This document shows positions 51 through 11,221 of a stretch of DNA of 13,403 nt, piece by piece. The DNA comes from an uncultured Planctomycetota bacterium (GTDB taxonomy: Bacteria; Planctomycetota; JACQVV01; CAZANL01): positions 1 to 13,403 of the forward strand of contig CAZMLI010000093.1 of NCBI GenBank assembly GCA_964566865.1, in the 5' to 3' direction. Position numbers and translations under genes: made by a program. Position 1 is the first letter of the stretch, and every line of letters begins with the position of its first letter. Under the pieces are notes generated by a model. That model was not told where the DNA came from. It made no database searches and saw only the letters and a list, made by a program, of their open reading frames with translations.

Positions 51-2222
51 TTACTCGAGCAGTCGCTCGCGCGCTTCGAGCAGCGCCTCCTTGGCCGCGG
101 GGTCCTTCTCGATGTCGTAGGCGGTCTTCAGCGCCTTGCGCACCGAGCCATCGCCCAGCAACCCGAGCGCGCGCGCGGCGGCCTGCCGGGTCTCGGGCAA
201 CCCGTGGCGCAGCAACTTGACCAGCGCCGGCACCGCAGAGCTGGCCTTGATCTTGACCAGGGCGAAGGCCGCCAGGCTGGCGATCTGCTTGTCCCCCATC
301 GCGGCCAGCAGCGGTTTGATCGCGCGCTTTTCCTTGCGCCGGGCGAGGTCGTAGCAGGCCTTGATGCGCACCCCGAGATCCTCGTTGCGCAGCCGCTCGA
401 CCGTCACATCGAAGGCGCTCTTGCGCTTGTTCGAGCCGCCGTTCATCATCTGCTCGATCTTCTTGTGGTGCTGCCTGACGGTCTTCTGCAGGTTGGCCAG
501 CCTGCCGCCGAGTCCCTTGCTGCCGATCTTGTAGATGCTCATCAGCCCGCTGTCGTACATGTGTGAGGTGGCCTTGGAGGCCTCCACCCCGCAGTGCGGA
601 TCCCAGAACAACTGATTGAGCCGCTTGAAGGCCGCGGCCACCGGCACCAGCACACAGTAGGCCACCGCGGCGCAGCGAAGTTCGTGGTCCTCGTTATGCA
701 GCAGCTTGACCAGCGCCTCGTCGAACGGGCGCGGCTGCTTGATGTGCGGCATGATCTTCAGCAGCGAGAGCTGCAGCGCCTTGGGACCCTCGCTCAGGTA
801 GCCGGCCAGGTTCGGCACCAGCGCGGGCGCCAGCTCGAGCCGCACCAGCGGAATCTGCAGGTGCTTTTTCAGATGCTCGACCAGCTGCAGCTTGAGCGCC
901 TTGTCGGCCTTCGGCCCCGAGACCTTGAGGATGATGGGCAGAACCCGGGCGCGCTCCTGGTCATCGAACTGGTCGGTATGATAGCCCGCCAGCAGCGCGC
1001 CGAACGAGGCCTGCCGCGTCGCGGGAGTGGCCAGCCCCTCCTCCAGCGCGTCGATCTTGTCCGGGCCGAGCTGGCTGACGATCAGAATCGCGATCAACGA
1101 GACGACCAGCGTGCCGCCACAGATCAGCGCAGCCAGCTTGTTCTTGCGCAGCTTGCGCTTCCAGCGGTCCAGCTTGCTCGGCGGGCGGGCGACGATCGGC
1201 TCGCCCAGCAGGAAGTTGCTGATGTCCATCGCCATCGCCTTGGCGCTGGGGTAGCGCGCCCCGGGCTCCTTGGCCATTGCCTTGAAGACGATCGCGACCA
1301 GATCCGGGTGCATGTCCCGCTGAAACTCGCGCGGGTCCTTGGGGTCGCTGTGCACCACCTTGTAGACCGTCTGCAGCGCGGTCTTGCCCTCGAACGGCGC
1401 GTGGCCGGTCAAGACGTTGTAGAGAATCGCGCCCAGCGAATAGATGTCGGTCGGCGGGCCGAGCTCCAGCGCCTCGGCCTGCTCGGGCGACATGTAGGAC
1501 GGCGTCCCGACGATCTGCCCCTCGATCGACAGCAGGCTGTCGGTGTTCGTATCCTTGGCCAGTCCGAAGTCGAGCAGCTTGAGCACACCGGCCTTGGTCA
1601 CGACCATGTTCGACGGCTTCAGATCGCGATGCAGGATGTTCTCGCTGTGGGCATATTCAATCGCCAGGCAGGCGTCGCGCACCAGCGCCAGCCGCTCATG
1701 AATCGTCACCACGCCGAGCTTCAGATACTCGTCGAGCGGGTGCCCGTCGACGTAGTCCATCGTGAAGAACGGGTTATCCTTGTACTCGCCATAGCCGTGC
1801 ACCGCGACGATGTTGGGATGCGACAGCTTGCCCATCGCCTTGACCTCGCGCTTGAGGCGGCTGATGAAGCGGGGGTCGTCGCGCGCCTCCGGCAGCAACA
1901 TCTTGATCGCCACCGTTCGCTCGATGCCCTCCTGGAAGCCCTTGTACACCACGCCCATGCCGCCCTTGGCAATCACCGAATCGATGCGGTACTTGCCCCA
2001 CTTGATCGGAAGTTTCTTCGCCCCGTCGCCTTGCAGCGGGGTGTCCGAGGCCGGCTGGGCCTGACGCTGCGACTTGCCCATGGCGCCGCTGACCAGCGTG
2101 ATCTCCGAGGAGATATCCGGCGGCGCGAGGTCGCTCATGTCCTCCGGGCAGACATAGCGCCGCTTGTGATCGTAGTTCTTGAAGGCGAAGGTCTTGCCAC
2201 AGGTGCTGCAGGTTAGTTTCAT
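51..2222 (-). CDS. Membrane-anchored Hanks-type Ser/Thr protein kinase (about 723 aa): N-terminal Cys3His zinc-ribbon-like motif, kinase domain, one TM helix, C-terminal HEAT/PBS-lyase-like repeat domain
   Basis: The track ORF 51..2642(-) reads through the true start. I take the start as the ATG at 2222 (MKLTCSTCGKTFAFKNYDHKRRYVCPED), preceded by AGGTGG. Kinase motifs are GKYRIDSVIAKGGMGVVYKG, VAIK, HRDLKPSNMVV, DFGLAKD and GTPSYMSPE. A TM segment LAALICGGTLVVSLIAILIVS follows a K/R-rich stretch. C-terminal repeats of the type ...AIKPLLAAMGD...AAFALVKI...VPALVKLL...AARALGLLGD are typical HEAT_2/PBS-lyase repeats. The stop is TAA at 51-53. Confidence 0.85.
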   Translation of the reverse strand: MKLTCSTCGKTFAFKNYDHKRRYVCPEDMSDLAPPDISSEITLVSGAMGKSQRQAQPASDTPLQGDGAKKLPIKWGKYRIDSVIAKGGMGVVYKGFQEGIERTVAIKMLLPEARDDPRFISRLKREVKAMGKLSHPNIVAVHGYGEYKDNPFFTMDYVDGHPLDEYLKLGVVTIHERLALVRDACLAIEYAHSENILHRDLKPSNMVVTKAGVLKLLDFGLAKDTNTDSLLSIEGQIVGTPSYMSPEQAEALELGPPTDIYSLGAILYNVLTGHAPFEGKTALQTVYKVVHSDPKDPREFQRDMHPDLVAIVFKAMAKEPGARYPSAKAMAMDISNFLLGEPIVARPPSKLDRWKRKLRKNKLAALICGGTLVVSLIAILIVSQLGPDKIDALEEGLATPATRQASFGALLAGYHTDQFDDQERARVLPIILKVSGPKADKALKLQLVEHLKKHLQIPLVRLELAPALVPNLAGYLSEGPKALQLSLLKIMPHIKQPRPFDEALVKLLHNEDHELRCAAVAYCVLVPVAAAFKRLNQLFWDPHCGVEASKATSHMYDSGLMSIYKIGSKGLGGRLANLQKTVRQHHKKIEQMMNGGSNKRKSAFDVTVERLRNEDLGVRIKACYDLARRKEKRAIKPLLAAMGDKQIASLAAFALVKIKASSAVPALVKLLRHGLPETRQAAARALGLLGDGSVRKALKTAYDIEKDPAAKEALLEARERLLE

Positions 2223-2258
2223 CCCACCTGAGAGTATAGCGTACAATCGATCCGCGCG

Positions 2259-5200
2259 ATGACCGAACCATGCCCTCTGACCGCGGCGGAGATGTCTCTG
2301 ATCGGGACATTGCGACTTCCGCCGGATGCGCTCAACCGGGCACTGGCGCTGCGCCGCGAGTATCCGGACCTGCGACGGGCACTGCTCGAGTCGGGCGCGA
2401 TCGGGCCCCACGAACTGCTCGCCGCCCTGACCGCGGCCGGCGTCGCCATCCAGATCGGCCGCTACAAGCTGCTGCGCGAGATTGCCCGCGGCGCGATGGG
2501 CACCGTGCATCTCGCGTTCGACCACGATCTCGACCGGGTCGTTGCGCTCAAGGTGCTCGACAACGTGCAGGACGTCCCCCGCTTCGAGCGCGAAGCCAGG
2601 CTGGCCGCCCGGCTGACGCACGCCCATATCATCCGGATCCACGAGGTGGGCGATTCACCCTGCCACTACATCGCGATGGCCTACATCGACGGCCCCACCC
2701 TGGAGCAGGCGATGCCGGACCTGTCGCAGGAGCGCAAGCTGGCGCTGCTGATCCAGATCGCCGAGGCGGTGGGCCATGGACACAGCAAGGGCGTGATCCA
2801 CCGCGACCTCAAGCCGGCCAACGTGCTGATCGACGAGTTCGAGCGGGCCGTGGTCACCGACTTCGGCCTGGCGCGCGACTACCAGACACAGGACCAGACC
2901 CAGCTGACCGCCACCGGCAGCATCCTGGGCACGCTGGCCTACATGTCGCCCGAGCAGGTTCGCGGAAAGACGGTGGGCCCGACCGCCGACGTCTGGGCTC
3001 TGGGCGTGATTCTCTACGAGATGTTGATGGGCGAGCGCCCGTTTCAGGTTGGCCGGGACCAGTCGATCTACGAGCAGATCCTCGAGAGCGATACCGATCC
3101 GCCCGACGCGCCGCAGGCCCTGCAGCGGATCGTCAGCAAGGCGCTCGACAAGGATCCCGCACGACGCTACGCCGACGGCGCGGCCTTCGCCAAGGCGCTC
3201 CACCAGTTTCAGCAGGGCGGAGCCGTCGAGCATCTGCCGCGCCACTGGCCGTGGATCGCTGCAACCGCGCTGCTGACATTGATCGCATTCGGCGCCTGGC
3301 GCAGGACACGCCCGACGGTTGTCAGCAAGCCGCGGGTTCAGCAGCCGGCGCCGAACGACCAACCGGACCTGGCCCTGCAACAGGAAGCAGAGCGGCGCCG
3401 GCAGGAGCTGGCCGCTTTCCGCCGACTGGTGGTCGAGACCCGCGCCAGTTTCTACGTCGGCCGCACGGACATCCGGGCTCGAATTACAGAACTGACCCGC
3501 GCGCTCAAACTCTGGGACCAGACCGACAGGCGCAAGCAGGACGACGTCTCCGCTCTCTGCGGCATCGGCTGGTACCTCACCGGCCAACCAGGCAAGGCGG
3601 AGCCCTGCCTGCTCGAGGCCCTGCGGCGAAATCCCGAAGACGGCTGGGTCAACCAGACGCTCGGCCGGATCCAGCTCGAGCGCGCGCTCGCCGCGCTGCT
3701 GACCAACGGTCAGGCCGAGGCGCTGCCGCTGACCGGCCGCTGGAGCAGCAAGGCCATGCAGTATCTCGGCCGTGGTAATCAGTGGCCGGACGAGCGCAAG
3801 ATCGAGCGCCACATCGCGCGAGCCTACCACGCGCTGGGCAGGAGCCGGTTCACCGAGCTGCGCCGGCTGTGTCAACAGGGCCTGGCGCGCCATCGCGGAC
3901 CGGGCACGGAGGAGTTCTGGTTCTTGCTTGGCTGGTTGCAGCCTTACAAGCAGCGCATCGTCTCCTGGAACAAGGCACTCGCGCTGCGCCCGCACTATCC
4001 CTGGCTCTCTTACGCCCGCGGCATGTCGCGCTTTCACGCGGGCAAGTTGCAGCTGGCGGCGCAGGACTTCGAGGCCGTCCTGCGGATGCATCCCCGCATG
4101 GCCTGGGGCTACCTCGCGCGCGGGTTGGTGCGCCAGCAGCTCGGGGACGGGCTCCGAGCACTCGATGATTACACCAGCGCGATCGCTCTCGATCACAGCC
4201 TCGTGCTGCCCTACAACAACCGCGGCATCCTCTACCACAACGCCGGTAACTTCACCGCGGCGGTGGCCGACTTCAATCAAGCGCTCAGGCGCGACCCACG
4301 CATGGCCAAGGCCTACAACAACCGGGGCCTGACCTACACCGCGATGGGCAATCCGCTGCGTGCGATCGACGACTTTACCAAGGCGGTCCGGCTGGAGCCC
4401 AGCTATGTCGGCGCCTTCCTCAATCGCGGGGTGGCCCATCGCGCCGCGCGTCAGAAAAAGCAAGCGATCGCGGACTTTGGGGAGGTGATCCGGCTCGATC
4501 CGACCGAGAAGAAGGCCCTGCTCAACCGGGGCGCGCTCTACCTCGAGCTGAATCCACGCCGGTTCAAGGCCGCGCTCGCCGATTTCGACCGCGTGCTGAA
4601 ACTCGACCCGAATTACCTCAAGGCACTCTACAACCGCGCAGTGACCAGACGCGCGATCCGGAACTACCAGGGCGCGCTGACCGACTTCAACCGCCTGATC
4701 AAGCTCGCGCCCATCGCCCATAATCTGGCCCAGCGCGGAATGCTGCTCTGCCTGAGGTTGGGTCAGCACGAGCGGGCAATCGCCGACTTCACCCGCGTGA
4801 TCGCCGCCGATCCAAACCACGTTCAGGCCTACAGCCATCGAGGCATCTCACGACGCGCCCTCAAACGCTTGAAGCCGGCGATCGCCGACTTCTCGCGCGC
4901 GATCGCGCTGAATCCCCGACACGCCAATGCCTACCACAACCGCGCGACGACGCGCACCGAGCTGGGCGATCAGATCGGCGCGATCGCCGACTACACCAGC
5001 GCGCTGGCGATCAACGACCAGCTGGCTTCGACCTACTTCGACCGGGGCACCGCCTACCGCAAGTGCAAGCAGTACCGCAAGGCCGCCGCAGACTACCGGC
5101 AGACCACCATCCTGCAGCCTCACTGGTGGAACAACTGGTTTCACTACGCCGCCCTGCTGGGCACCCTGCAGCGTTTCGAGGAAGCGCTGGCGCCCCTGCG

Positions 5201-5294
5201 CAAGGCCGAGGCGCTGGCCCCTCCCGAGGCCAGGAAGAGCGTGCGCGTATTGATCCGGATGATGCAGGATGCAATCAAGAAGCAGAAGCAGTGA
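2259..5294 (+). CDS. Membrane-anchored Hanks-type Ser/Thr protein kinase with a conserved about 60-aa N-terminal module and a C-terminal array of about 9-10 TPR repeats (1011 aa)
   Basis: ORF 2259..5294. Kinase motifs are IGRYKLLREIARGAMGTVHLA, VALK, HRDLKPANVLI, VTDFGLARD, YMSPEQ, DVWALGVILYEM and DPARRYA. The TM segment is WPWIAATALLTLIAFGAW. There are repeated 34-aa units with the signature AIADF..AI.L.P....AY.NRG. The N-terminal LTAAEMSLIGTL... is conserved with the paralog at 10151, which supports the 2259 start. Confidence 0.9.
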   Translation: MTEPCPLTAAEMSLIGTLRLPPDALNRALALRREYPDLRRALLESGAIGPHELLAALTAAGVAIQIGRYKLLREIARGAMGTVHLAFDHDLDRVVALKVLDNVQDVPRFEREARLAARLTHAHIIRIHEVGDSPCHYIAMAYIDGPTLEQAMPDLSQERKLALLIQIAEAVGHGHSKGVIHRDLKPANVLIDEFERAVVTDFGLARDYQTQDQTQLTATGSILGTLAYMSPEQVRGKTVGPTADVWALGVILYEMLMGERPFQVGRDQSIYEQILESDTDPPDAPQALQRIVSKALDKDPARRYADGAAFAKALHQFQQGGAVEHLPRHWPWIAATALLTLIAFGAWRRTRPTVVSKPRVQQPAPNDQPDLALQQEAERRRQELAAFRRLVVETRASFYVGRTDIRARITELTRALKLWDQTDRRKQDDVSALCGIGWYLTGQPGKAEPCLLEALRRNPEDGWVNQTLGRIQLERALAALLTNGQAEALPLTGRWSSKAMQYLGRGNQWPDERKIERHIARAYHALGRSRFTELRRLCQQGLARHRGPGTEEFWFLLGWLQPYKQRIVSWNKALALRPHYPWLSYARGMSRFHAGKLQLAAQDFEAVLRMHPRMAWGYLARGLVRQQLGDGLRALDDYTSAIALDHSLVLPYNNRGILYHNAGNFTAAVADFNQALRRDPRMAKAYNNRGLTYTAMGNPLRAIDDFTKAVRLEPSYVGAFLNRGVAHRAARQKKQAIADFGEVIRLDPTEKKALLNRGALYLELNPRRFKAALADFDRVLKLDPNYLKALYNRAVTRRAIRNYQGALTDFNRLIKLAPIAHNLAQRGMLLCLRLGQHERAIADFTRVIAADPNHVQAYSHRGISRRALKRLKPAIADFSRAIALNPRHANAYHNRATTRTELGDQIGAIADYTSALAINDQLASTYFDRGTAYRKCKQYRKAAADYRQTTILQPHWWNNWFHYAALLGTLQRFEEALAPLRKAEALAPPEARKSVRVLIRMMQDAIKKQKQ
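4465..4994 (+). repeat. Intragenic DNA-level repeats (GCGATCGC[C/G]GACT[T/A][C/T]) marking recently amplified TPR units
   Basis: Near-identical 15-mers occur at 4465-4479 (gcgatcgcggacttt), 4776-4790 (gcaatcgccgacttc), 4878-4892 (gcgatcgccgacttc) and 4980-4994 (gcgatcgccgactac). The last three are spaced exactly 102 bp apart, which is one 34-codon TPR. Each encodes the AIADF/AIADY motif. Confidence 0.8.
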
Positions 5295-5372: not shown

Positions 5373-6794
5373 ATGGGGCGAACAACTGGAATCCTGACAC
5401 TGCTGCTGCTGGTCTGCGCGCTCGGCTGCGAACCGGGCGAACTCGTCGCCCCGACGATCGATACGCATCCGACCCACAAGACCGCCAACGCCGGACAGAT
5501 CGTCACCCTGCAGGTCGCCGCCAGTGGTTCGGCCAAGCTGCGTTACCAGTGGACCCGGGGTGGCGTCGACATCCCCGGCGCCAGCTACTCGTTCTACATG
5601 AGCCCCGAGCTGACCCTGGCCGACGACGGCGCGCTCTATGCCTGCCGCGTGACCAACAAGGAAGGCAGCGTCACCAGCGGGTCCGCCGTCGTCAGCGTGC
5701 ACGACGCGGTGACGATCAGCCTGCACCGGATCAAGGCCGCCGACGGCTGGACCCTCGGCGTCAAACGCTACCTGCCCAGCGCGGCCATCGCCTCCTACGA
5801 GCCGGTGGTGATGACCCACGGCTTCCTCGAGAGCCACGACGTCTACGACCTGGACAGCACGCACAGCCTGGCCATGTCGGTCGCGCTCGCCGGCTTCGAC
5901 GTCTGGGTGCTCGACCTGCGCGGCAACGGTCTGTCGGCCGGTCCGAAGATCTCCGAGCTGCTCAGCTGGAGCTTCAACATCGACGACTTCATTCACAAGG
6001 ACGCCCCGGCCGTGATCGATCACGTGCTAACGCTGACCGGCAAGTCCCAGGTCTTCTGGGTCGGCCACAGCATGGGTGGACTGGTCGGCTACGCCTACGT
6101 CGAGACCGAGTCGAAGCACAAGATCAAGGGCCTGGTGACGCTCGCCGGCGCCGCCTGGATGGGTGGACCGGCGCAGTTCGATTCCAAGCCGGGCGGCTTC
6201 TTCATGGCGCTCGGCTCCGCGCTCGGCCCCTTCCTGCTGCCGGACTTCCCGGTGCCCGTCGGCTACGCCTGGAAAAAGGGCGCTACCGGCAAGCCCTGGG
6301 CCAAGGCCCTGCACGAATTCCTGCTGACCGACTTCGGCAAGTTCACCTGGTCCACCGAGAACATGGACGCCGCCAGAATCCAGGTCCTGATGGACCGCGC
6401 CGTCGACAATACCAGCGCCAACATGGTGCGCCAGTTCATCGCCTGGACCACCCACGAGGACATCTACACCTACGGCCCCTCGCCCCACGCGCCCCTGTTG
6501 CAAGAGTCCGACTACTACAAGAAACACGGCTTCTACAGCTACAAGGACCACCTCTCGGACATCACCACCCCCGCGCTGCTGATCGCCGGCGAGGTGGACC
6601 AGGTCGTGCCCGCGGCCAACGTGAAGAAGATCTTCGACGCCCTCTCGAGCAGCGACAAGACGTTGAAGATCATCGGCAAGAGTCACGGCCACCCGGTCGA
6701 CGTCGGACACGAGGACATCCTGGCCGGGATCCACTCGCCCGCGCTGGTCTATCCGCTCGTCGTCGAGTGGCTGCTCGCCCGCGCCTCGAAGTAA
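5373..6794 (+). CDS. Lipoprotein: N-terminal Ig-like (I-set-type) domain fused to an acid-lipase-family (gastric/lysosomal lipase-like) alpha/beta hydrolase (473 aa)
   Basis: GAGGAG lies 6 nt upstream of ATG 5373. The signal peptide MGRTTGILTLLLLVCALGC has an ALGC lipobox. The Ig-like signature is YQWTRGG...LTLADDGALYACRVTNKEGSVTSGSAVVSV. The hydrolase region PVVMTHGFLESHDVYDLDSTHSLAMSVALAGFDVWVLDLRGNGLS...FWVGHSMGGLVGYAY...LLIAGEVDQVVP...HGHPVDVGHEDILAG aligns motif-for-motif with human gastric lipase (PVVFLQHGLLAS...[21 protein letters not shown]...HYVGHSQG...AVWNGGNDLLAD...YNHLDFIW). The nucleophile elbow is GHSMG. Confidence 0.85.
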   Translation: MGRTTGILTLLLLVCALGCEPGELVAPTIDTHPTHKTANAGQIVTLQVAASGSAKLRYQWTRGGVDIPGASYSFYMSPELTLADDGALYACRVTNKEGSVTSGSAVVSVHDAVTISLHRIKAADGWTLGVKRYLPSAAIASYEPVVMTHGFLESHDVYDLDSTHSLAMSVALAGFDVWVLDLRGNGLSAGPKISELLSWSFNIDDFIHKDAPAVIDHVLTLTGKSQVFWVGHSMGGLVGYAYVETESKHKIKGLVTLAGAAWMGGPAQFDSKPGGFFMALGSALGPFLLPDFPVPVGYAWKKGATGKPWAKALHEFLLTDFGKFTWSTENMDAARIQVLMDRAVDNTSANMVRQFIAWTTHEDIYTYGPSPHAPLLQESDYYKKHGFYSYKDHLSDITTPALLIAGEVDQVVPAANVKKIFDALSSSDKTLKIIGKSHGHPVDVGHEDILAGIHSPALVYPLVVEWLLARASK

Positions 6795-6810
6795 CCGCAA
6801 ACTAAAACAA

Positions 6811-6866
6811 AGGCCAGGTCCACGCCGACAGTTCGGCAGGTGCCTGGCCCTCGTTCTACGGTTTTT
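6811..6866. terminator. Bidirectional intrinsic-terminator-like nested hairpin between the convergent lipase and amidase genes
   Basis: The outer stem GGCCAGG (6811-6817) pairs with CCTGGCC (6842-6848). It encloses a perfect inner hairpin GCCGA-CAGT-TCGGC (6823-6836). TTTTTT at 6861-6866 follows on the + strand and a T-rich tract (revcomp of ctaaaacaaa, 6801-6810) follows on the - strand. It sits between stop codons at 6792-6794 (+) and 6876-6878 (-). Confidence 0.5.
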
Positions 6867-6875
6867 TCGGGTGTC

Positions 6876-7883
6876 TTACTTGATGCGCGTCACGTATCCG
6901 CCGTGGACCCACTCGGCGCGGTGGTCGTACTGGATCAGCACCCAGGCGCCCGAGCGGGTGATCTCGCGATAGAGCTGTCCTCGGTAGACCGATCCGACGC
7001 GGTTGTTCGAGGCCACCTTGGCGGACCAGCGCGCGTTGAGCCTGGCGGCGGTGACCTTCACCGCTCGCGAGCCGTCGGCGCGGGTGTAGGCGCCCCAGAA
7101 GTAAGCGGTGCGACCGCGCCAGTAGAGACGACGCCAGGAGCCGGTCGTCTTGTCACTGACGTGCACCTTGCCACGCCTGGTCTGGCCCAGCAGCGAACCC
7201 CAGACGCCGGTCCTGACGTTCAAGCGACTGCTGGTCACGGCGCGGGTGGTGACACCGCTCGCCTTGGCGACCGGCTTGGGTGCGGCCTTGGGCGTGACTT
7301 TCGGCGCGGGTTTCGGAGCGGGGGCCGGCTTCGGCGCGGCCACCGGCGGCTTGCCGGTGCGCACGAGGTGGATGAAGTAGTCCCACTTGAAGTGGGGTCC
7401 CGGATCCCAGTGGCTCTGGTTGGGCACTTCCTTGTGGGCGATGATGCGGCTGCGGTCGATCGGGATCTTGTACTTGTCGCAGATGTAGCGGGTCAGCCTG
7501 GCCAGCGACCGGTACTGCGCCTCGGTCCAGAGGTTCTTGCCGGCGTAGCCCTCGTTTTCGATGCCGATCGAACTGGAGTTGTAAGTCCAGTTGCCGGCGT
7601 GCCAGGCGATGTCCTTCTCGCGAATCATCTGCGTGACCGCCCCGGTCTTGCTGACGATGTAGTGCGCGGACACCTTCGAGCCCGGGTTCTTGAACCAGGA
7701 GATCGCACCGGCGGCGCTGCCTTCGATGGTATGGATGATGACGTAGCGGATCGAACGGCTCGATCGCTTGGTGTAGTGCACGCCTTGCGTGTAGCTGGCC
7801 CCCGGATATTCCGAGCCGGCGGTCGCCGACAGCGGCAGGCCGATCAGGCAGGCGATGATCAAGAGTGTTGTTCTGGTCCCCAT
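6876..7883 (-). CDS. Secreted (Sec or lipoprotein signal) N-acetylmuramoyl-L-alanine amidase (Amidase_2/PGRP fold) with a Pro/Ala/Lys-rich linker and two C-terminal SH3b cell-wall-binding domains (335 aa)
   Basis: Only the C-terminal 335 codons of track ORF 6876..9887(-) are real. The ATG at 7883 is preceded by a perfect AAGGAGG (7889-7895, 5-nt spacer). The signal peptide is MGTRTTLLIIACLIGLPLSATAG. Amidase_2 motifs are YVIIHTIEGSAAG, SAHYIVSKTG, AWHAGNW, SIGIENEG and IIAHKEV. The linker is PPVAAPKPAPAPKPAPKVTPKAAPKP. Two SH3b-like units follow (RLNVRTGVWGS...WRRLYWRGRTAYFWGAY and RLNARWSAK...YRGQ...WVLIQYDHRAEWVHGGYV). Confidence 0.9.
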   Translation of the reverse strand: MGTRTTLLIIACLIGLPLSATAGSEYPGASYTQGVHYTKRSSRSIRYVIIHTIEGSAAGAISWFKNPGSKVSAHYIVSKTGAVTQMIREKDIAWHAGNWTYNSSSIGIENEGYAGKNLWTEAQYRSLARLTRYICDKYKIPIDRSRIIAHKEVPNQSHWDPGPHFKWDYFIHLVRTGKPPVAAPKPAPAPKPAPKVTPKAAPKPVAKASGVTTRAVTSSRLNVRTGVWGSLLGQTRRGKVHVSDKTTGSWRRLYWRGRTAYFWGAYTRADGSRAVKVTAARLNARWSAKVASNNRVGSVYRGQLYREITRSGAWVLIQYDHRAEWVHGGYVTRIK

Positions 7884-7916
7884 TTGAGCCTCCTTGGTTA
7901 GGATGCTCAGCCTATG

Positions 7917-7932
7917 AGCAATTGGCGTGCCC
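7917..7932 (-). promoter_or_regulatory. Sigma-54 (-24/-12) promoter oriented toward the amidase gene
   Basis: On the minus strand, the revcomp of 7917-7932 reads GGGCACGCCAATTGCT, which is GGCACG-N4-TTGCT against the consensus TGGCACG-N4-TTGCW. The GG is at 7931-7930 and the GC at 7919-7918. The predicted TSS is near 7906, giving a 23-nt leader (GCAUCCUAACCAAGGAGGCUCAA) that contains the SD before ATG 7883. Confidence 0.6.
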
Positions 7933-7949
7933 CTGCCGAAATAAATTCT

Positions 7950-7973
7950 CAAGTCATTGATACCAAATGACTT
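7950..7973. promoter_or_regulatory. IHF-like site inside an 8-bp perfect inverted repeat (AAGTCATT-N7-AATGACTT) in an AT-rich island
   Basis: The revcomp of 7950-7962 is TATCAATGACTTG, an exact fit to the IHF consensus WATCAANNNNTTR. It is centred about -50 relative to the predicted sigma-54 TSS. The inverted-repeat arms are at 7951-7958 and 7966-7973. The region 7938-7975 is conspicuously AT-rich in a 70% GC background. Confidence 0.45.
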
Positions 7974-7997
7974 GCATGGTTGACGGCCGCATGCGGC

Positions 7998-8044
7998 GGC
8001 GGAAAAACCGCCGTGGCGAGCGGGGCTGTGGCGGAAAAACCGCC
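7998..8044. repeat. Two tandem copies of a palindromic hairpin repeat GGCGG-AAAAA-CCGCC, candidate UAS/enhancer sites
   Basis: Copy 1 is at 7998-8012 and copy 2 at 8030-8044. The centres are 32 bp apart, about three helical turns. They lie about -99 and -131 relative to the predicted sigma-54 TSS, immediately upstream of the bEBP start codon. Flanking bases extend each stem (c7997/g8013; c8026-g8029 with c8045-g8048). Confidence 0.6.
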
Positions 8045-8066
8045 GCGGATTTGCTCTAATGGCCGC

Positions 8067-10150
<2,084 letters not shown>

Positions 10151-10154
<4 letters not shown>

Positions 10155-11221
10155 GCGATCTGACCGCGGCCGAGCTGGCCCTGGTCGCGACCCTGACACA
10201 AGAGAAGCTGCTCTCCCCAGCGGCATTGAGCGCGACCCTCGGCCGACGCCGCGAACTGCCGCACCTGATCGATGCGCTGCTCGAGACGCTCGCCATCTCG
10301 GCGAACGAGATCGAGGGCGCGCTCTCGCGCAGCGGCCTGTCGCTGCTACTGTGCAGCGCCTGCAGCCGCGACTGGCTGGCGCGCCTGGGCGAAGGCTGTC
10401 CCGACTGCGGCCAGGCCGGCGAGTCCCGACCGCTGCTGTCCCGCATCGGGCGCTATCGGGTGCTGCGCGAGCTGGGCCAGGGCGGCATGGGCGTGATCTA
10501 CGAGGCGCTCGACGAACGGCTCGGGCGCAACGTCGCGATCAAGTTGATTCGCGATCCAGGCAGTCGACATCGGCCGCACACTCGCGGCGCTGGAGAGATC
10601 TTTGAATCGGGCCGAAACGCTGGCGGCGCTGCCCGGCAGCCCCGAGCCCGTGCTCTGGCGCTTGATCGGCGCCGGCTGGTATCTGCTCGGCTGGACCGAG
10701 CGCGCCGAGCGGGCGCTGCGACTTGCCCCCGAGGATGCCAGGGCCCGCTACTACATGGCCCGCATCGCGCTCGACCGCGCGCGCATCGCGCTGGCCGGCG
10801 GCCCGAGGGGCCGGACCGCCCGCTCGCGCAGTCAACTGCGTCAGGCGCTGCAGCTACTGCAAAGCGCCAGCGCTGCGGCCAGTCCGCTGGACCGCCAGGT
10901 CTGCCAGGCCTGCAGGACTACCGGGGCGCGCTGGCCGACTTCAACCGCGCACTCGTGCTCAAACCCGATGGGCCGGCGGCGCTGTTCAATCGCGGGCGAA
11001 CCCACGCGATGATGGGCGATCTGACCGCGGCCGTCCGCGACTACCGCGCGCTGCTGGCGCGTCAGCCGAAGTTCGCAGGCGCCTGGCTCTCTCTGGATCG
11101 CGCGCTGGCCGCACTCGGCAAGCGCGAGGACGCGCTGGTGACATTGCGCACCGGCCGCGCGCTGGCCAAGGGGCCGCTACGCGCACAGTTCGACGCCTCG
11201 ATCGCGCATCTCAGCAAATAA
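10151..11221 (+). pseudogene. Decayed paralog of the 2259..5294 Ser/Thr kinase-TPR gene: intact N-terminal module, Cys4 zinc ribbon and kinase subdomains I-II, then two large internal deletions with frame changes, ending in about 2 TPRs and the conserved C-terminus
   Basis: The start GTG at 10151 overlaps the bEBP stop (GTGA). Frame 1 residues 1-134 align to kinase A residues 1-105 (LTAAELALVATL / IGRYRVLRELGQGGMGVIYEA / VAIKLIRD against LTAAEMSLIGTL / IGRYKLLREIARGAMGTVHLA / VALKVLDN). After about 10550, frame 1 becomes R/P/G-rich nonsense. Homology to A residues about 398-470 continues in frame 3 (10548-11012: DIGRTLAALERSL...LIGAGWYLLGW...APEDARARYYMARIALDRARIAL against DIRARITELTRAL...LCGIGWYLTGQ...NPEDGWVNQTLGRIQLERALAAL). 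Frame 1 is homologous again from about 10900 (QDYRGALADFNRALVLKPDGPAALFNRG... against NYQGALTDFNRLIKLAP... and the shared C-terminal LDRALAALGKREDALVTLR / YAALLGTLQRFEEALAPLR). The catalytic loop, DFG, APE and TM are absent. Confidence 0.55.

Follow-up and report, generated by a model that had tools for sequence, protein, structure and literature searches.

The 13,403-nucleotide stretch of DNA from an uncultured Planctomycetota bacterium that was analysed here, referred to as the window, contains two divergently transcribed genes separated by an intergenic region of 183 bp (7884-8066). The minus-strand gene (6876..7883) specifies a protein of 335 residues that comprises a signal peptide, an Amidase_2 domain, a Pro/Ala/Lys linker and two C-terminal SH3_3-like repeats. 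Its plus-strand neighbour (8067..10154) specifies a bacterial enhancer-binding protein (bEBP), a sigma-54 activator of 695 residues with a GAF domain, a degenerate GGDEF domain, an AAA+ domain and a putative C-terminal Fis-type helix-turn-helix (HTH). A first-pass annotation of this DNA had described a secreted amidase gene divergent from a bEBP gene, and the Pfam matches and the signal peptide agree with that description. Between the two genes lie a -24/-12 element of the sigma-54 type, an AT-rich element and a pair of identical palindromes, which are candidates for the promoter of the amidase gene, a bending or regulatory site, and the upstream activating sequences (UAS) of the bEBP, respectively.

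The amidase matches Amidase_2 with E = 3.8e-37, and SH3_3 is carried by its homologues, nearly all of which come from metagenome-assembled genomes (MAGs) of Planctomycetota. Its nearest solved structures are AmpD, AmpDh2 and AmiD, and the zinc ligands His51, His150 and Asp160 are invariant. The product is thus predicted to be a secreted zinc N-acetylmuramoyl-L-alanine amidase.

The -24/-12 element, GGGCACGCCAATTGCT, lies on the minus strand at 7932..7917, in non-coding DNA and in the sense orientation for the amidase gene, and ends 33 nt before its ATG. The first-pass annotation had called this box near-perfect and proposed a sigma-54 motif scan, and a consensus scan of the window bears out the call, as GGGCACGCCAATTGCT is the only match with at most one mismatch to TGGCACGNNNNTTGCW (TGGCACG-N4-TTGCW). 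It agrees with 11 of the 12 specified positions of TGGCAC-N5-TTGCW; the GG (7931/7930) and the GC (7919/7918) stand at the consensus spacing, and the base preceding the GG is G rather than T. Transcription is predicted to start at about 7906, giving the amidase a leader of 23 nt, and within this leader a Shine-Dalgarno sequence can be read on the minus strand (AAGGAGG, 7895..7889), 5 nt before the ATG at 7883, as had also been noted. The arrangement AGGAGGCTCA-ATG at the amidase start is kept in a related locus, L003. A scan for sigma-70-type promoters between 6700 and 8200 found none, and an Rfam search of 6700-8300 at permissive E-values returned nothing relevant. Furthermore, the presence of a GAFTGA-bearing bEBP in the window indirectly implies that the host possesses rpoN.

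Recurrence of the element was assessed by collecting 175 loci with amidase homologues and scanning the region upstream of each start codon; a box was counted where GG and GC had the required spacing and 10 or more of the 12 consensus positions agreed. For the tally by lineage, duplicate contigs were removed, proteins with both Amidase_2 and SH3 were taken as full-length, and sense or antisense matches within 150 nt were recorded. A sense box precedes the gene in 7 of 23 independent full-length lineages, which are Planctomycetota MAGs, and an antisense box in none of the 23. The seven are the window, L004, L007, L090, L009, L092 and L099 (L103 shares the L099 promoter), and in each the box is found 33-64 nt before the ATG. 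The negative control consisted of 139 homologues that share the catalytic domain alone; these are mostly from Actinomycetota, which to our knowledge lack sigma-54, and were drawn from a scan of genome contigs, a set unfit for synteny. Two of the 139 have a sense box and one an antisense box. The proteins behind the boxes are only 37-67% identical, and their upstream DNA is otherwise unalignable. As a measure of background, 8 box matches occur in 278 kb of related loci, counting both strands outside the amidase upstream regions, and about 0.06 matches would be expected by chance in the amidase upstream windows. The presence of a sigma-54 promoter in front of the amidase gene is therefore well supported by these comparisons, and taken alone, the sigma-54 dependence of this promoter is highly probable. 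Promoters of this family are found only within a clade of uncultured Planctomycetota.

Further upstream of the box, GGCGGAAAAACCGCC occurs in exactly two copies in the window, both in the intergenic region. The promoter-proximal copy, candidate UAS1 (GGCGG-AAAAA-CCGCC, 7998..8012), is centred at about -99 relative to the predicted start, and the distal copy, candidate UAS2 (8030..8044), is an identical palindrome centred at about -131; neither has a strand. The first-pass annotation had placed two such palindromes three helical turns apart in the geometry of NtrC-type sites, and this description stands: both copies are exact, their starts are 32 bp apart, and they lie 80-150 bp upstream at an integral helical-turn spacing. 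The repeated unit is in fact longer than the palindrome, as 24 nt (7993-8016 and 8025-8048) are 88% identical between the copies. No other pair of sites was found in the intergenic region. As a separate observation, the UAS pair is flanked by two copies of GGCCGCATG (7985-7997 and 8061-8069), the first copy within a 12-nt palindrome, GCCGCATGCGGC, and the second including the start codon of the bEBP gene.

It had been proposed that the upstream regions of related amidase genes be searched for the same pair of sites, and the outcome of this search is divided: one locus, L003, has a pair, and most of the orthologues with a box have none. In L003, the amidase is 70% and the bEBP 77% identical to the proteins of the window, and the layout is the same; it is the only other lineage that keeps the bEBP divergent. 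Most of the flanking DNA in the gap between its two genes has diverged, yet the gap retains two GGCGG-AAAAA-GCGCC sites 31 bp apart. The site centres of the window lie 74.5 and 106.5 bp from the GG of the box; the corresponding distances in L003 are 84.5 and 115.5 bp, so that the L003 sites are shifted by one helical turn and would present the same face of the helix. A third locus, L012, is the amidase contig of a MAG with two bEBP paralogues (P0137 and P0138); its box, CGGCCCTCCCCTTGCT, is weaker and is preceded at 62.5 bp by a single, perfect CGGCGG-N5-CCGCCG site. Measured from the GG, the helical phase of the sites agrees to within 2 bp across the three loci, although as support for a link between the UAS and the bEBP, the single in-phase site of L012 is only suggestive.

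Linkage of the two genes is also found in L094, in which four elements are arranged in tandem on one strand (200-4520): an M23 (LytM-type) peptidase gene with two SH3 repeats, an amidase-SH3 gene, a strong terminator, and a bEBP orthologue that is 56% identical to that of the window. The bEBP and the amidase are therefore linked in three lineages (the window, L003 and L094) and in two gene orders, and the arrangement in L094 links two cell-wall hydrolases, the M23 peptidase and the amidase, to the bEBP. At L170 and L171, which are loci of bEBP paralogues, neither an amidase nor a clear pair of sites was found.

The activator itself has the motifs needed for sigma-54 activation and is on this evidence predicted to be competent for it. 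Pfam assigns Sigma54_activat with E = 3.2e-70, together with GAF, GGDEF (a partial match), AAA_lid_14 and HTH_8, and the AAA+ motifs GESGSGKE and LFLDEIGE (Walker A and B) and GAFTGA are present and invariant in six orthologues. The HTH_8 match is weak (16.8 bits, gathering score 22), and the C-terminal segment MGLS-RRFRELRQK, which would correspond to the recognition helix of the HTH, is conserved among the orthologues. A longer reading of the gene from a TTG at 7980 was rejected, since the N-termini of the orthologues align from the ATG at 8067. True orthologues are very rare: a search of 5.8 billion clustered proteins, for which the full-length query was needed, yielded about six, and a search with the N-terminal 379 residues alone returned generic GAF/GGDEF proteins and no true orthologue.

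Together, the recurrence of the box (7/23 as against 2/139), the pair of sites in L003 and the motifs of the bEBP support the core reading of the first-pass annotation, namely that the amidase gene has a sigma-54 promoter with a UAS pair for the bEBP encoded divergently from it. What is observed directly comprises the sequence elements, the fact that they occur non-randomly and are conserved in relatives, and the motifs of the activator. Prediction of cognate binding draws on the co-occurrence of the palindromes with this bEBP family in the window, in L003 and in the MAG of L012.

Several observations weigh against this reading. No box precedes the gene in 16 of the 23 full-length lineages, some of whose amidase genes lie inside operons (L174) or behind murJ (L175); both of these were scanned and have no -24/-12 box. 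In L003, the closest bEBP-linked relative, the -12 element reads TTGT, with GT in place of the near-invariant GC, and in L094, the upstream region ends at the contig edge and contains no clear box. Furthermore, most orthologues with a box have neither a bEBP within 4 kb nor a GGCGG-N5-CCGCC site, and thus the activator is not fixed in the family. The link between the UAS and the bEBP comes from two close lineages and the one single site of L012, and GGCGG-N5-CCGCC is frequent by chance in GC-rich DNA such as the L012 genome.

The orthologous promoters that lack an adjacent bEBP carry other palindromes: AACACCgGGTGTT and CGGTGTaACACCG in L090, TACACCcaGGTGTA in L004, and two copies of CACACGTGTG 50 bp apart in L099. 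Because of these, the sigma-54 promoter seems to be older than any one enhancer or activator and to have a wider distribution than any one activator, and the activator seems to have been exchanged between lineages. Paired palindromes built on ACAC/GTGT half-sites are present in L090 (3800-3880), L004 (720-760), L099 (about 410-470) and L097, and their sequences suggest a different activator acting on the same sigma-54 promoter.

The interpretation of the AT-rich element between the UAS pair and the -24 box is less secure. The island at 7940-7979 has a GC content of 32.5%, compared with a background of about 66%, and is the only AT-rich island; within it, TATCAATGACTTG (7962..7950, minus strand) matches the IHF consensus WATCAANNNNTTR (WATCAA-N4-TTR) exactly. 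This match, centred at about -50, is the only one in the window, where 0.03 would be expected, and by our own estimate the local chance is about 0.005. The first-pass annotation had accordingly assigned an IHF site, and the exact consensus inside the only AT-rich island stands. What it had missed is that an inverted repeat with perfect 9-bp arms, CAAGTCATT-N7-AATGACTTG, spans 7950..7974, and that the match is its right arm. IHF sites in E. coli are asymmetric, and the consensus match is absent from L003, in which AAGTCnTTT and GAATTTAT alone are kept; this absence likewise counts against IHF as a part of the arrangement. Words resembling AAGTCAT recur upstream of the amidase gene in L004 (TAAGTCATG), L009 (CAAGTCATTG) and L003 (AAGTCCT), and a literature search found nothing on IHF, or on IHF specificity, in Planctomycetes. 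The 9-bp palindrome may therefore be the site of a second regulator, and a second dimeric regulator at -50 is at least as likely as IHF. That the element is not an IHF site at all, but either the operator of a separate dimeric regulator (a repressor or co-activator) or merely bendable AT-rich DNA, has a probability that falls somewhat short of even, given an exact 13-nt consensus at the classic place between enhancer and promoter. An IHF site in the specific sense is doubtful, while the position and AT-richness of the element fit a bending element.

A second alternative accepts the sigma-54 promoter but takes the palindromes as an operator for the promoter of the bEBP gene only, leaving the amidase promoter to be fired by an unlinked activator. 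The bEBP gene does appear to have a promoter in a position to be so controlled. A putative extended -10 element (TGcTCTAAT, 8052-8060, plus strand), read from the sequence, ends 6 nt before the bEBP ATG, and in all three bEBP-linked lineages the bEBP gene lacks a Shine-Dalgarno sequence, and its ATG follows a -10-like hexamer at a distance of 6-9 nt (8052-8069 in the window, 4793-4812 in L003 and 2330-2351 in L094). In L003, the element reads TGgTTTAAT and is followed after 6 nt by the ATG, so that an extended -10 of the form TGnTnTAAT is common to the window and L003; in L094, it is TAGAAT, followed after 9 nt. From the lack of a Shine-Dalgarno sequence and the closeness of the hexamer to the start codon, the bEBP mRNA is probably leaderless. 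UAS2 would then occupy about -37 to -23 of this promoter, merely 23 bp from the bEBP ATG, and as it covers the putative -35 position, its occupancy would hinder RNA polymerase. Autorepression of the bEBP gene through the overlap of the UAS with its promoter is therefore plausible.

The position of UAS2 over the putative -35 speaks for the operator reading, and the promoters of L004, L007, L009, L090, L092 and L099, in which the box occurs without an adjacent bEBP or a GGCGG-N5-CCGCC site (palindromes such as AACACCgGGTGTT or the paired CACACGTGTG being found instead), also favour an unlinked activator, as does the fact that the paralogues P0137 and P0138 do not adjoin an amidase gene. Yet the positions at -99 and -131, the spacing of 31-32 bp and a phase towards the -24 box that the window shares with L003 and L012 are features needed for activation at a distance and not for a simple operator. 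The linkage of bEBP and amidase in three lineages and two gene orders points in the same direction, and the intergenic region offers no other site pair to an activator. An operator serving the bEBP gene alone is thus distinctly unlikely.

It is very improbable that the -24/-12 match is a coincidence and that the amidase gene is instead read by a housekeeping sigma factor, from a planctomycete promoter that escaped recognition and with no connection to the bEBP. A lone 16-mer with one mismatch is admittedly no proof, as matches with two mismatches occur in the window at chance level (4 observed, 2.6 expected), and the TTGT of L003 departs from the expected -12. Moreover, planctomycete sigma-70 promoters are poorly defined, so that the negative sigma-70 scan is weak evidence. 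What counts against coincidence is that boxes of the same position and orientation precede amidase genes whose upstream DNA cannot otherwise be aligned, at the frequencies given above for orthologues, controls and chance expectation.

In the window, the A5 spacer of the palindromes is on the bEBP strand, and in L003 it is on the amidase strand. That the entire UAS segment had been inverted in one of the two loci was rejected as the cause, for the inter-site DNA of the two can be aligned without reversal. For a protein with two-fold symmetry bound to a palindrome the two forms would be equivalent, whereas for an RNA hairpin they would differ. The difference in strand of the A-tract therefore favours a symmetric DNA-binding site over an RNA hairpin. 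That the units are RNA or DNA hairpins (a terminator, an attenuator or a repetitive extragenic palindrome-like element) rather than protein-binding sites is extremely improbable, for although CTGTGGCGGAAAAACCGCCGCGG plus ATTTGCTCTA on the plus strand is picked out by a terminator scan, neither side has a gene whose transcription would enter the units, the stem in L003 is imperfect (GGCGG/GCGCC), its sequence being conserved and not compensated, and only two copies exist in 13.4 kb, with no Rfam match.

An enhancer-dependent sigma-54 promoter for the amidase gene, served by a UAS pair for the divergently encoded bEBP, is thus the probable reading of the region as a whole. The binding, the looping, the start site, the signal and the autoregulation that it involves are what we infer from the sequence. 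In the mechanism envisaged, sigma-54 RNA polymerase would form a closed complex on GGGCAC-N5-TTGCT (7932..7917), and dimers of the bEBP would bind GGCGG-A5-CCGCC at about -99 and -131, three helical turns apart. Once the N-terminal sensor module is switched on, these dimers would form the active ring, and the AT-rich DNA in between, perhaps with a protein of the IHF/HU type or another factor on the 9-bp palindrome, would permit the ring to loop onto the polymerase. ATP hydrolysis would then open the promoter, and the transcript would run from about 7906 to a hairpin at 6864..6799. As the same palindromes would cover the -35 position of the extended -10 promoter of the bEBP gene, the bEBP would probably repress its own synthesis.

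The nature of the signal may lie in the sensor module. Residues ~200-340 of the bEBP, between the GAF and AAA+ domains, are predicted to adopt a full GGDEF fold (AlphaFold2 pLDDT 81), which matches known GGDEF domains at TM scores of 0.7-0.78. The active site is degenerate (RYGAQAF, with GAQAF at the GGDEF-like site), and RESDLPARYGAQAF includes an RxxD I-site (RESD) five residues upstream of it, at the spacing seen in PleD. Arg258, Asp261, Arg265 and Gly267, as well as the LPxRYG that follows the I-site, are invariant across the bEBP orthologues. The combination of GAQAF with an intact RxxD motif is the signature of a degenerate-GGDEF receptor for cyclic di-GMP (c-di-GMP), and the bEBP is a possible candidate for such a receptor, as judged from its sequence and predicted fold. 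A dead active site and an RxxD I-site at PleD spacing are shared with degenerate GGDEF receptors of the PelD/PopA type, and the pairing of a GAF domain with a degenerate GGDEF recalls PelD; PelD is a membrane protein and not a transcription factor. FleQ binds c-di-GMP through its AAA+ domain (PMC3424551), whereas here the candidate module is a GGDEF domain, and that by prediction. A literature search found no bEBP with a GAF plus degenerate-GGDEF module, nor any GGDEF-containing bEBP. The full proposal, in which a c-di-GMP-receptor bEBP would gate the sigma-54 AAA+ motor and switch on an SH3-anchored amidase (and in one relative the M23 peptidase too), is tentative and rather unlikely to hold as a whole.

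The unit is closed downstream of the amidase gene by the hairpin at 6799..6864, which separates the alpha/beta-hydrolase gene from the amidase gene convergent with it and is preceded by an A-run and followed by a T-run. Its RNA fold has an energy of -37.7 kcal/mol (z = -5.4), it is also flagged in the terminator scan, and it looks like a bidirectional intrinsic terminator common to the two genes. Closed by this terminator, the amidase would be a single-gene transcription unit.

The other proteins of the window are two Ser/Thr kinases with HEAT or TPR repeats, a protein with Ig and alpha/beta-hydrolase domains, a TPR protein and an SPFH protein. Given these neighbours, the context of the amidase is chromosomal; its reading as the lysin of a phage or prophage was rejected, and the term 'lysin' in the first-pass annotation, which hints at a phage, is not supported by this context. 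A 5.2-kb JGI metagenome contig also carries this sequence. The alpha/beta-hydrolase gene that adjoins the bEBP/amidase region (5373-6794) has an N-terminal Ig domain, and another hydrolase gene stands beside the paralogue P0137 (L170, 3186-4346); the alpha/beta-hydrolase may thus be a conserved neighbour of the bEBP family. The bEBP orthologues are always flanked by genes for large Ser/Thr protein kinase-TPR/HEAT proteins (51-5294 and 10151-11221 in the window, and also in L003, L170 and L171), and from such kinase-rich neighbourhoods, kinase input into the bEBP is possible. The gene in the 10151-11221 region of the window encodes a TPR protein of 356 residues and overlaps the bEBP stop codon, and its kinase domain is reduced to a fragment.

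By analogy, the proposed mechanism is of a known, textbook kind, like those of NtrC, NifA and NorR. At glnAp2 of enteric bacteria, NtrC acts by DNA looping on a -24/-12 promoter from two strong dimer palindromes about three turns apart, near -108 and -140; the region described here similarly combines a -24/-12 element with two palindromes, at -99 and -131 and 32 bp apart. It differs in that NtrC sites are of the TGCACC-N5-GGTGCA type rather than GGCGG-A5-CCGCC, in that NtrC is switched by a phosphorylated receiver domain rather than by a GAF and a GGDEF-like domain, and in that the target of glnAp2 is glutamine synthetase rather than a cell-wall hydrolase. The norR gene is divergent from norVW, with the NorR sites in the common intergenic region and negative autoregulation, and promoters of the nifH type have an IHF site between the UAS and the -24/-12 box. 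The present system resembles these in having a GAF-regulated AAA+ activator, the divergent layout of NorR and a possible bend between enhancer and promoter. In contrast, the UAS there are three GT-N7-AC sites (NorR) or TGT-N10-ACA (NifA), an additional degenerate GGDEF separates GAF from AAA+ in the present bEBP, an exported amidase is the predicted target, and the role of IHF is only putative. GAF-domain control of an AAA+ activator is itself established for NorR (PMC2941729).

What is new in the present system is its target, a secreted peptidoglycan amidase, and its rare GAF/degenerate-GGDEF sensor module. Sigma-54 has been described as a 'controller of the bacterial exterior' with a theme of cell-envelope functions (Francke et al. 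2011, PMC3162934), and sigma-54 promoters, bEBPs and regulons have been predicted in Planctomycetota/Planctomycetia (PMC12316311); neither gives a peptidoglycan amidase among the sigma-54 targets, and no sigma-54-dependent amidase was found in the literature. The gene under predicted sigma-54 control here is likewise a cell-envelope gene. A peptidoglycan hydrolase would thereby join the predicted targets of sigma-54, which fits the view that this factor governs the cell exterior.

Hardly any promoters have been characterised in the phylum Planctomycetota, for which the region offers a concrete regulatory unit consisting of promoter, enhancer, activator, target and terminator. In addition, the GAF and degenerate-GGDEF sensor is a candidate new route for c-di-GMP into sigma-54 transcription. 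If this tentative assignment is true, the bEBP would have an input module of a kind not described before, and second-messenger signalling in Planctomycetota would be tied directly to cell-wall cleavage, whether in budding and division or in attack on neighbouring cells.

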